Shown piece after piece: positions 1,963 through 62,144 of a DNA stretch of 64,000 bases (the first letter of the stretch is position 1; every line of letters starts with the position of its first letter). Both the position numbers and the translations under genes were made by a program. Origin of the DNA: Escherichia coli (GTDB lineage: Bacteria; Pseudomonadota; Gammaproteobacteria; Enterobacterales; Enterobacteriaceae); the NCBI RefSeq assembly GCF_013122565.1, contig NZ_CP053258.1; one strand, 5' to 3'. The notes beneath the pieces are model-generated. The model was not told the origin of the DNA. It ran no database searches and saw only the letters and a list, made by a program, of their open reading frames with translations.

Positions 1963-2985
1963 TTAATATTCCACCAGACCACCGTAATAGCGGCGTTCAT
2001 CCGGGTTGTGATCTTTGTAAATAGACAGGTAGTAGCAGAGCCACTCCATTGGCACGAACATCAGGAACGGTGCCAGCCACGGGTGCAGCCCTTGCGAAAT
2101 TTCGGCGTAATCGATGACGATCACGTTGTCAGTACGCTGTTTAACAAAGTTAATGGCGCGTTCGGTGGTGTGGCGACTTTCATCATTGCCGAGCAGGAAC
2201 AGGAACGGAACGCCCGGTTCGACAATCTCCAGCGGGCCATGGCGGAACTCTCCGCTCTCAATCACGCAGCCGTGCGTCCAGGTAAATTCCATCAGCGTTA
2301 CAATGCCTTCTTTGTAACCCAGCGGACGCAGCGGACCCGCAGCAACGGTATAAATCATCGGCCACTGGCTGGCCAGTTCACCAAGCTGGCGGCCTTTTTC
2401 TTCCCAGGTGCGTACCAGATGACCGAGCGCATTCGGCAACTGCTTGAGATCGTTTTTGATCTTGCCGATTTCCGCGTTCGGCGCGAGGCGGGTGATCATC
2501 TCCAGCACCACGCTGTAGCAGAGCAGCAGGTGAATTTCCCAGATACAGTCGGCCTGATAATCAATGCTAAATTCCGCCGCCGAGGTAATCGGGCTGTCCG
2601 CGCGTTTGGTGAACGCCGCAGTGAGTGCGCCGCAGGCCCGGCCCAGCTCCAGCGCTTTGATTACCTCTTCCGTTTTACCGTAGTCAGAAACGCCAATCAC
2701 CGCGCAACGATCGTCGAGGCGATACGGGGTGTTATCGCAGAACTCCCAGCCGGAAATGGCGTAGACCTGAAGATCGGAAAAGCGATCCGCCAGATGTTTC
2801 GCCGTTTGCGCCGCGTTGAGTGGCGAGCCGCAGGCAACGAAATAAATACGATCAATGTCGCGCTTCACCATCTCTTCCACGATGGCGTGCACCAGCGGAA
2901 CGTCATGGCTGAGAACTTTTTCCACTTCCTGAACCATATTTTCGGTGACCAGAAAGTCCACGGTGCTTTTATCAATATCCAACAT
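1963..2985 (-). CDS. frlB: Fructoselysine-6-phosphate deglycase (SIS-domain protein)
   Basis: ORF-track frame 1963..3006; start placed at ATG 2985 (MLDIDKST, 340 aa) preceded by GGAG at about 8 nt; first ATG lacks an SD. Confidence 0.88.
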
Positions 2986-3005
2986 TTTATTTTCTCCAGA
3001 TAACA

Positions 3006-4394
<1,389 letters not shown>

Positions 4395-11952: not shown

Positions 11953-12534
<582 letters not shown>

Positions 12535-12543
12535 TGATTTCTC

Positions 12544-12570
12544 GCGCGGGCAATCTTGCCCGCGCTTCTG
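12544..12570 (+). terminator. Intrinsic terminator downstream of ppiA
   Basis: Stem gcgcgggcaa / ttgcccgcgc followed by ttctgctct. Confidence 0.6.
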
Positions 12571-12599
12571 CTCTCCCGGCGTAACCCGGATTTGCCGCT

Positions 12600-12605
12600 T
12601 ATACT
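12600..12605 (+). promoter_or_regulatory. Candidate -10 hexamer TATACT for the yhfG-fic transcript
   Basis: TATACT 33 nt upstream of the yhfG GTG, no good -35; inference only. Confidence 0.3.
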
Positions 12606-12638
12606 TGTGGCAAATGGACACGTTCAGGGAGGCATCAA

Positions 12639-12806
12639 GTGAAGAAACTCACCGATAAGCAAAAGTCCCGTCTCTGGGAGCTTCAGCGTAATCGTAATTT
12701 CCAGGCCAGTCGCCGTCTTGAAGGCGTCGAGATGCCTTTAGTCACTCTTACTGCCGCAGAGGCTTTAGCGCGCCTTGAAGCGCTGAGGAGGCACTATGAG
12801 CGATAA
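12639..12806 (+). CDS. yhfG: Small Fic-partner protein YhfG (putative antitoxin-like inhibitor, 55 aa)
   Basis: Own translation from GTG with SD agggagg: [55 protein letters not shown]; 3' end overlaps fic start by 11 nt. Confidence 0.85.
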
Positions 12807-13398
12807 ATTCGGCGAAGGGCGCGATCCGTATCTTTATCCAGGCCTTGATATCATGCGTAACCGGCTGAACATCCGTCAGCAGCAGCGGCTGGAACAGGCC
12901 GCTTACGAAATGACGGCGCTGCGTGCTGCGACCATTGAGCTTGGTCCGCTGGTGCGCGGTTTACCGCATTTGCGCACTATCCATCGCCAGCTGTATCAGG
13001 ATATTTTCGACTGGGCAGGGCAACTGCGTGAAGTCGATATTTATCAGGGCGATACGCCGTTCTGCCACTTTGCTTATATCGAAAAAGAGGGCAATGCCCT
13101 GATGCAGGATCTGGAGGAAGAAGGTTATCTGGTTGGCCTGGAGAAAACGAAGTTCGTCGAGCGGCTGGCGCATTACTATTGTGAAATCAACGTGCTGCAT
13201 CCCTTCCGGGTGGGAAGTGGTCTGGCACAGCGGATCTTCTTCGAGCAACTGGCGATTCATGCCGGATATCAACTGAGCTGGCAGGGTATCGAAAAAGAGG
13301 CCTGGAATCAGGCAAATCAGAGTGGGGCAATGGGGGATCTCACCGCGTTGCAGATGATATTTAGCAAAGTGGTAAGCGAAGCCGGGGAATCTGAGTAA
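12796..13398 (+). CDS. fic: Fic-domain protein (filamentation induced by cAMP; FicT-class AMP-transferase fold)
   Basis: 200-aa ORF-track protein; Fic motif region reads [12 protein letters not shown]; SD gaggagg upstream. Confidence 0.93.
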
Positions 13399-13429
13399 AA
13401 TAGCGCGGTTCTTTCGTACCGGAGCCGCC

Positions 13430-13993
13430 ATGATCCTGCTTATAGATAACTACGATTCTTTTACCTGGAACCTCTACCAGTACTTTTGTGAACTGGGGGC
13501 GGATGTGCTGGTTAAGCGCAACGATGCGTTGACGCTGGCGGATATCGACGCCCTTAAACCACAAAAAATTGTCATCTCACCTGGCCCCTGTACGCCAGAT
13601 GAAGCCGGGATCTCCCTTGACGTTATTCGCCACTATGCCGGGCGCTTGCCGATTCTTGGCGTCTGCCTCGGTCATCAGGCAATGGCGCAGGCATTTGGCG
13701 GTAAAGTTGTGCGCGCCGCAAAGGTCATGCACGGCAAAACCTCGCCGATAACACATAGCGGTGAGGGCGTATTTCGGGGGCTGGCAAATCCACTTACTGT
13801 GACACGCTATCATTCGCTGGTGGTGGAACCTGACTCATTACCTGCGTGCTTTGACGTGACGGCCTGGAGCGAAACCCGCGAGATTATGGGGATTCGCCAT
13901 CGCCAGTGGGATCTGGAAGGTGTGCAGTTCCATCCAGAAAGTATTCTTAGCGAACAAGGACATCAACTGCTGGCTAATTTCCTGCATCGCTGA
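13430..13993 (+). CDS. pabA: Aminodeoxychorismate synthase component II (glutamine amidotransferase)
   Basis: 187-aa ORF-track protein, class-I GATase (GVCLGHQ catalytic Cys motif). Confidence 0.96.
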
Positions 13994-61688: not shown

Positions 61689-61778
61689 AGCCAGCCAATC
61701 TTTTGTATGTCTGTGCGTTTCCATTTGAGTATCCTGAAAACGGGCTTTTCAGCATGGAACGTACATATTAAATAGTAG

Positions 61779-62144
<366 letters not shown>

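Follow-up and report, generated by a model that had tools for sequence, protein, structure and literature searches.

The 64,000-nucleotide (nt) stretch of Escherichia coli DNA analyzed here (NCBI RefSeq assembly GCF_013122565.1, contig NZ_CP053258.1), which we call the window throughout, carries the gene pair yhfG-fic, and the Fic protein encoded there has an active-site signature that departs from that of the canonical adenosine monophosphate (AMP) transferases. The pair lies in a run of genes that are all on the plus strand, in which ppiA (11962..12534) is followed, after a spacer of 104 nt, by yhfG, fic and pabA (13430..13993), and then by argD. The upstream member, yhfG (ecficA; 12639..12806, +), starts with GTG, ends with TAA at 12804-12806 and encodes a FicA-type partner of 55 amino acids (aa), and fic (ecficT; 12796..13398, +) starts with ATG at 12796-12798 and encodes a class I Fic-fold protein of 200 aa. 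The two frames share 11 nt (12796..12806) within a translational-coupling junction (12786..12806, +), in which the sequence AGGAGG (12786-12791) sits inside the 3' end of yhfG. A scan of one genome per species yielded 80 loci for comparison, all from Enterobacteriaceae and with 69-99% protein identity, and the overlap measures 11 nt in 77 of the 80 species, 4 nt in two and is replaced by a truncated yhfG in one. The GAGG core of the Shine-Dalgarno sequence is kept at the junction across species and is followed by an identical ATGAGCGATAA. Given its occurrence in 77 of 80 species, the 11-nt overlap is no chance layout. A first-pass annotation of this DNA had described a 55-codon yhfG overlapping the fic start by 11 nt and had taken this for the layout of a FicA/FicT pair; we read the same coordinates from the sequence, and the assignment to this type is borne out by the motif SRRLEG in YhfG and by the match to the crystallized EcFicT/EcFicA pair.

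Profile and structure searches identify both proteins. Fic matches the Pfam family Fic (PF02661) over residues 58-152 (E=2.2e-13), and YhfG matches the Pfam family YhfG (PF10832; E=1.4e-24). Among the NCBIfam models, Fic scores 430 bits with NF007672 (putative AMP-protein transferase Fic, an equivalog with a cut-off of 181) and YhfG scores 126.6 bits with NF007573 (cut-off 77), both above threshold, and the score of Fic with NF045983, the VbhT adenylyltransferase equivalog, is 138.6 bits, far below the cut-off of 800. Full-length matches were found to the crystallized chains 5JFZ_A for Fic (E=1.2e-133) and 5JFF_B for YhfG (E=2.5e-29), and both window proteins are ~98% identical to the chains of 5JFF and 5JFZ. 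These structures are of EcFicT/EcFicA from strain K-12, which come from the same locus, with an identical motif, the same SRRLEG sequence and the same ppiA and pabA neighbors. The differences from K-12 are allelic, namely R27 and T118 in the window Fic (His and Ala in K-12) and A48 and R51 in YhfG (Glu and Ser in K-12), and all of them lie outside the motif, the inhibitory helix and the pocket positions. In DNA sequence, the locus is 98.8% identical to that of the K-12-derived strain XL10-Gold and 99.5% identical to that of the best-matching genome. Of 5426 complete E. coli genomes, 5425 contain the locus, which RefSeq annotates as fic/yhfG, and 5427 of the 5428 matched places in these genomes are on chromosomes. 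The locus is the chromosomal yhfG-fic (ecficA-ecficT) operon, and its fic gene is the founding member of the Fic family. The architecture is that of class I FicT/FicA systems, with the inhibitory helix on a separate small protein encoded directly upstream, and membership in the Fic/DOC fold follows from the PF02661 match and from the position of H135, whose loop can be aligned with the canonical motif.

The altered signature motif comprises residues 135-146 of Fic and is encoded at 13198..13233 (+) by cat ccc ttc cgg gtg gga agt ggt ctg gca cag cgg. Measured against the consensus HxFx[D/E]GNGRxxR, it has V139 in place of the acidic residue, S141 in place of the Asn and L143 in place of the first Arg (R1), and it retains H135, F137, G140, G142 and R146, the last being the second Arg (R2). 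The first-pass annotation had reported exactly these replacements, and we read them at the same positions. With V139, S141 and L143, the protein lacks the signature of a canonical AMP-transferase. We considered whether the true motif might lie elsewhere in the protein, an outcome that would have overturned the earlier description, and rejected this because Fic contains a single match to H.F..G.G...R, which lies inside the Pfam domain and aligns gaplessly and column by column with the HPFREGNGRAQR of Pseudomonas Fic-1 (PDB 8WT0).

Comparison with other Fic sequences establishes how widely the altered motif is distributed. The canonical motif occurs in none of the 80 species orthologs and in none of the 120 nearest representatives of clusters built at 90% identity, which are 79-100% identical to the window protein. 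The motifs of these 120 representatives are of the type HPFR-[VLIF]-G-[SN]-G-[LMI], the exceptions being single HPFC and G-C-G variants. A strain-specific defect is rejected, since the same type of motif is present in all 120 close representatives and in all 80 species orthologs. The alignment with FicT toxins and with orthologs that had been suggested as a check on the earlier description has thus been made, and it finds the altered motif conserved across the Enterobacteriaceae. A more distant set was drawn from a library of 50%-identity representatives, in which 5206 relatives were found at E<=1e-3 and the best 150 were examined. Among these best 150 of the 5206, the degenerate motif is confined to the cluster of the query, its fragments and a few others, the latter being P0248, a multidomain protein at greater distance (HPFRRGNGLAIR), and one or two doubtful sequences, and nearly all full-length relatives at <=48% identity have HPFREGNGRxxR or HPFRDGNGRxxR. 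Two sequences were set aside as unreliable, P0129, which has odd substitutions rich in Cys, Phe, Trp and Val throughout, and P0122, in which a YhfG-like N-terminus is joined to Fic from residue 35. As a separate observation, YhfG and Fic are predicted to be single polypeptides in P0001 (252 aa) and P0005 (233 aa), each with both Pfam domains, and also in P0122 (200 aa); such joined polypeptides could have arisen from frameshift errors of sequencing or assembly within the 11-nt overlap, or they could be fusions that occur naturally but rarely.

The three replacements are not equally characteristic of the clade. All 81 sequences have V, I, L or A at position 139, and 77 of the 81 have L, I, M or V at position 143, with R in the other 4, so these two positions define the clade. 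Position 141 varies, with S in 39 sequences, N in 40 and T in 2; the change from Asn to Ser, which the first-pass annotation had listed beside the other two, is not clade-wide. R1 is kept in Franconibacter pulveris, F. helveticus, Dryocola boscaweniae and Enterobacter sp. R1(2018), with the motif HPFRIG[ST]GRAQR. These four orthologs are at the syntenic site and are among the most diverged, and in them the acidic residue and the Asn are already gone. In sequence terms, the species that keep R1 look like evolutionary intermediates in which the acidic residue and the Asn were lost first.

Several lines of evidence indicate that the altered motif belongs to a protein that is maintained. In all 80 species fic is an intact open reading frame (ORF) of 196-202 codons. 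Among 81 sequences, 70 of the 200 Fic residues are invariant, including Y12, G55, N132, H135, F137, R138, G140, G142 and R146. Median ratios of nonsynonymous to synonymous divergence (dN/dS), calculated by the Nei-Gojobori method for orthologs against the window, are 0.099 for fic, 0.097 for yhfG, 0.069 for pabA and 0.029 for ppiA; fic is under purifying selection and encodes a maintained protein. The gene order tsgA, ppiA, yhfG, fic, pabA, argD is found in 80 of 80 loci, as far as each extends. The patchy distribution and lack of fixed context that mark a mobile type II toxin-antitoxin module are not seen here, since the context is fixed in 80 of 80 loci, and this pattern indicates that the module is inherited vertically and is not mobile. 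When the 81 members of the clade are contrasted with 110 canonical representatives, clade-specific changes appear in the pocket and flap (E36A, F67Y, Y71F, T79E and S83Y), and these match published specificity-determining positions (PMC5033356). The clade is descended from canonical AMP-transferases. Judged from these comparisons, the altered motif is an old, conserved and selected state of a vertically inherited pair, neither a defect of one strain nor a product of decay. The term "degenerate" would thus undersell the motif, as the conserved changes, combined with coordinated changes in the pocket, point to a new function rather than to plain loss.

The partner protein is conserved to a similar extent at the positions that matter for the complex. 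The inhibitory-helix motif SRRLEG occupies YhfG residues 24-29 (12708..12725, +) and fits the pattern [S/T]xxxE[G/N], with E28 encoded at 12720-12722, and all 79 full-length orthologs have both S24 and E28. The K-12 proteins form a stable 1:1 complex with a melting temperature (Tm) of 63 C, and in its crystal structure EcFicA E28 is salt-bridged to R146 of EcFicT (PMC5033356). As both window proteins are ~98% identical to the solved chains, we take the stable 1:1 complex with its E28-R146 bridge to apply here. In the assembly of the Escherichia albertii type strain NBRC 107761 (2844-3011 of locus L004), codon 13 of yhfG is changed from TGG to TGA (W13stop) and fic is intact, and the same nonsense change with an intact fic has been reported for E. 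albertii TW07627 (PMC5033356). Because yhfG is cut short at this codon while fic is intact, Fic without a full-length partner is evidently tolerated in at least two E. albertii strains.

Much of what is described above is already in print. Stanger, Harms, Dehio and Schirmer renamed the genes ecficT and ecficA in 2016 and recognized [S/T]xxxE[G/N] in EcFicA; they detected neither auto- nor target adenylylation by EcFicT, even with the inhibition motif mutated (EcFicA E28G), and argued that Leu at R1, together with the exchange of the acidic residue for a hydrophobic one, makes binding of adenosine triphosphate (ATP) unlikely (PMC5033356). The same study found close homologs of EcFicT only in Enterobacteriaceae, syntenic between ppiA and pabA, and proposed that a new conserved hydrophobic pocket accommodates a substrate of EcFicT (PMC5033356). 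The observation is therefore already known: publications of 2015-2016 cover the altered motif and its partner gene, the structure, the failure to detect AMPylation and the inheritance by vertical descent. The suggestion in the first-pass annotation that nucleotidyl transfer is impaired or altered agrees with the published conclusion for this exact pair (PMC5033356), and its suggestion of a repurposed module gains weight from the conservation of the motif across Enterobacteriaceae, the purifying selection and the vertical inheritance. Our literature searches found no primary study after 2016 on the G55R allele of fic or on EcFicT activity, and a paper of June 2026 still calls the mechanism of EcFicT elusive.

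The regions flanking the pair contain several features that bear on its expression. Downstream of ppiA, a hairpin at 12544..12565 (+) consists of the stem GCGCGGG, a loop of 8 nt and the stem CCCGCGC, and in 18 aligned Enterobacteriaceae sequences the stems are conserved and the loops vary. It was not called by a terminator scan, as no T-run follows the hairpin; from its stem conservation and position it is likely the ppiA terminator and would form the upstream boundary of the yhfG-fic unit. The block TTGCCGCTTATACTTGTGGCA (12592..12612, +) resembles a promoter, with the -10-like hexamer TATACT (12600-12605) placed 39 nt ahead of the yhfG start codon. The block has hardly changed across genera from Escherichia to Klebsiella and Yokenella and is more conserved than the flanking non-coding sequence, and when the ppiA-yhfG spacers are aligned, 76 of 81 sequences have TATACT at a distance of 35-43 nt upstream of yhfG. 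A scan for the sigma-70 consensus gave nothing useful upstream of yhfG and missed the TATACT block; on the strength of its conservation, the block at 12592-12612 is probably a promoter. The fic promoter is described as a classical RpoS-dependent one. The Shine-Dalgarno sequence of yhfG, GGGAGG, is located at 12627..12632 (+), and CAGGGAGG is conserved in the spacer alignment.

On the other side of the pair, pabA (13430..13993, +) begins 31 nt after the fic stop codon and is a neighbor that provides context rather than a member of the complex. It follows fic on the same strand in 79 of the 79 loci, among the 80, that reach it, and the gap between fic and pabA is 29-33 nt in 66 of the 79 measurable loci. 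Because this gap is short and conserved and the genes are on the same strand, fic and pabA are probably co-transcribed. Komano and co-workers reportedly linked fic to p-aminobenzoate/folate synthesis around 1991, and a literature search on a connection between Fic, pabA and folate gave nothing relevant. Five species (loci L026, L034, L063, L067 and L069) have an insertion of ~845 nt between the fic stop and the pabA start, which contains a reverse-strand ORF of 119-159 aa beginning with or containing MRVFKTKWF...GGGVYKKRL; we take this ORF to resemble toxins of the RelE/ParE type. An antisense ORF of 156 aa (12961..13431, -) was also considered and dismissed as probably spurious: synonymous sites have diverged no less in fic than in the neighboring genes, and the absence of a depression there argues against a second coding constraint. 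A search of Rfam found nothing in the locus or close to it. At the gathering score, the window has a single Rfam match, the alpha-operon ribosome-binding site RF00140 at 61709-61820 (+; 102.7 bits), which is expected, since that end of the window is a ribosomal-protein region.

Taken together, we think it probable that Fic is a repurposed enzyme that has left ATP behind. Position 139, the canonical Mg2+ ligand, and position 143 (R1), which in canonical enzymes contacts the beta-phosphate of ATP, are both hydrophobic here, and Fic would no longer AMPylate with ATP and would not be a classical toxin. Fic has kept its catalytic His, the glycine-rich anion nest, Asn132 of the adenine pocket, and R146 with its Glu partner, and it is therefore likely to have remained an enzyme. 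Its most likely activity would be phosphodiester chemistry with a ligand that contains a nucleotide but is not free ATP, and such chemistry could take two forms. In the published version, a group would be transferred from a different donor bound in the new hydrophobic groove formed by A36, T40, Y67, F71 and V139; in the other, the Fic-YhfG complex would remove a nucleotidyl group by hydrolysis.

A number of observations weigh against a repurposed enzyme. Catalytic activity of EcFicT of any kind is argued from sequence and structure, and a non-catalytic binding role would be possible. Two reviews attribute growth inhibition or AMPylation of gyrase and topoisomerase IV to EcFicT (PMC10886550, section 4.2; PMC8097203, table 1). 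The classical fic-1 allele changes G55 (12958..12960, +; wild-type Gly in the window) to Arg, and this gain-of-function allele causes filamentation (PMC5033356); Fic can thus harm cell division under some conditions, which fits a conditional toxin. All 81 sequences have Gly at position 55, where most canonical relatives carry Asp. The gene is also dispensable, as fic knock-outs are viable (PMC5033356). In E. coli MS 21-1 (NZ_CP146670.1; 3237-6255 of locus L081) fic is split at about window position 13031 by ISEc10, an element of the IS21 family (istA, istB), beside an intact yhfG and pabA, and this natural disruption fits the reported viability of knock-outs.

The claim in the two reviews would support a bona fide FicT toxin, in which Fic freed from YhfG would AMPylate gyrase and topoisomerase IV and arrest growth as VbhT and YeFicT do, and the type II toxin-antitoxin gene layout with its inhibitory motif and the filamentation caused by G55R would agree with it. 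Both reviews, however, cite Harms 2015 (Cell Reports), and the authors of that work reported in 2016 that adenylylation was undetectable even with the inhibition motif mutated (PMC5033356), so the claim looks like a spreading citation error. Moreover, either E139A or R143A on its own abolishes AMPylation in Fic-1 of Pseudomonas (PMC13327609), the score with the VbhT equivalog model is far short of its cut-off, and the locus is vertical and syntenic, unlike mobile toxin-antitoxin modules. The two E. albertii strains in which yhfG carries a nonsense codon next to an intact fic also speak against a toxin, and this natural situation would be the best, though indirect, evidence that EcFicT is non-toxic. 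We regard the toxin hypothesis as largely refuted and very improbable. The idea of a decaying remnant, in which the motif changes are inactivating and a toxin gene is on its way to being lost, could draw on the dispensability of fic and on its occasional disruption by an insertion sequence, but a dN/dS of ~0.10, comparable to that of neighboring pabA, the intact ORF in 80 of 80 species and the retention of the locus in all but one of the complete E. coli genomes leave it a probability close to nil, and we consider a pseudogene or decaying toxin ruled out by the selection and the intact ORFs. A pseudoenzyme, in which catalysis has been lost in favor of a binding or regulatory role, such as sequestering a partner from cell division or the folate pathway, with YhfG as a structural subunit, would account for the failure to find an activity over the decades that followed the first description of fic in the early 1980s and for the loss of the Mg2+ and beta-phosphate ligands. 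Surface patches conserved away from the active site would be consistent with such a role, as would the G55R phenotype, which maps far from the active site (PMC5033356). Against this, H135, G140, G142, R146, N132 and E28 of YhfG are invariant beyond what maintenance of the fold would need, and pocket-lining positions are specifically conserved within the clade, and we therefore think that a pseudoenzyme is unlikely.

The hydrolytic version of the repurposed enzyme deserves a judgment of its own. Here, Fic-YhfG would be a dedicated, constitutive eraser that removes AMP or another nucleotidyl group, with the AMP-transfer half of an ancestral bifunctional module lost, and we entertain this as a tentative possibility that is on balance rather unlikely. 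The precedent is the Fic-1/AntF complex, which deAMPylates and for which only H135 of Fic-1 and E28 of AntF are essential; the Fic-1 variants E139A and R143A lose AMPylation and keep deAMPylation (PMC13327609), and the E. coli protein is hydrophobic at both positions. The residues required of a deAMPylase are in place throughout the clade, with H135 in 81 of 81 Fic sequences and E28 in 79 of 79 YhfG sequences, and E28 stays conserved though there would be no ATP-dependent activity left for it to inhibit. The adenine pocket and the phosphate nest are retained, the EcFicT/EcFicA complex is stable and 1:1, and the conserved gene overlap favors stoichiometric synthesis of its subunits. Several points count against an eraser nonetheless. 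The usual metal ligand is gone here, and deAMPylation by Fic-1/AntF needs a divalent metal. The flap and target dock, with E79 and Y83, are unlike those of the canonical, largely gyrase-targeting FicT relatives, so AMPylated GyrB may not be the substrate. The newly conserved hydrophobic groove suggests that a ligand was gained, beyond the loss of ATP binding, and the E. albertii yhfG nonsense codon beside an intact fic would be unexpected if the complex alone were active. K-12 is not known to have a canonical FicT writer of its own. Our literature searches found no deAMPylation assay on EcFicT/EcFicA, and the proposal of an eraser role for EcFicT was likewise not found in the literature searched. 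If the eraser were real, it would be the natural equivalent of the Fic-1 mutants E139A and R143A, dead for AMPylation and competent for deAMPylation, and its role could be to repair host proteins after nucleotidylation by foreign Fic toxins or endogenous writers.

We thus favor a repurposed, non-ATP enzyme, in whichever of its two forms. The question matters because it concerns the founding member of the Fic family, whose phenotype has been known for decades. Any activity proposed for this protein has to accommodate the invariant His, R2, glycine nest and partner Glu together with hydrophobic residues at positions 139 and 143, and also the clade-specific pocket and flap, the strong purifying selection and the fixed place beside pabA.

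The closest characterized relative outside the clade is Fic-1 of Pseudomonas bijieensis (8WT0), which matches the window Fic with E=8e-49 and 39% identity over 196 ungapped residues. The two systems are alike in being class I with a small upstream partner, in sharing H135, R146 and N132, and in having S24 and E28 at the same positions of the partner, and the published overlay of Fic-1/AntF on 5JFF has a root mean square deviation of 0.9 A. Fic-1, however, has the canonical HPFREGNGRAQR, AMPylates GyrB and is toxic, and its complex with AntF deAMPylates GyrB (PMC13327609), whereas the window Fic differs from it by V139, S141, L143, A36 and Y67. The VbhT protein of Bartonella schoenbuchensis is more distant (E=3e-33), and its canonical motif aligns column by column with that of the window Fic. 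VbhT/VbhA, YeFicT and PaFicT share with the window pair the Fic fold, the class I arrangement, the salt bridge between the antitoxin Glu and R2, and an N-terminal DPY segment; in contrast to the window Fic, VbhT, YeFicT and PaFicT are canonical in motif, AMPylate both GyrB and ParE, bring growth to a halt and are encoded at mobile or non-syntenic loci. Changes in the Fic motif that redirect the fold to another substrate have precedents in Doc, which is a kinase, and AnkX, which is a phosphocholine transferase (PMC5033356). Doc has Lys at the position of the second Gly, where the window Fic has G142, and neither the Doc nor the AnkX pattern fits the motif of the window Fic.

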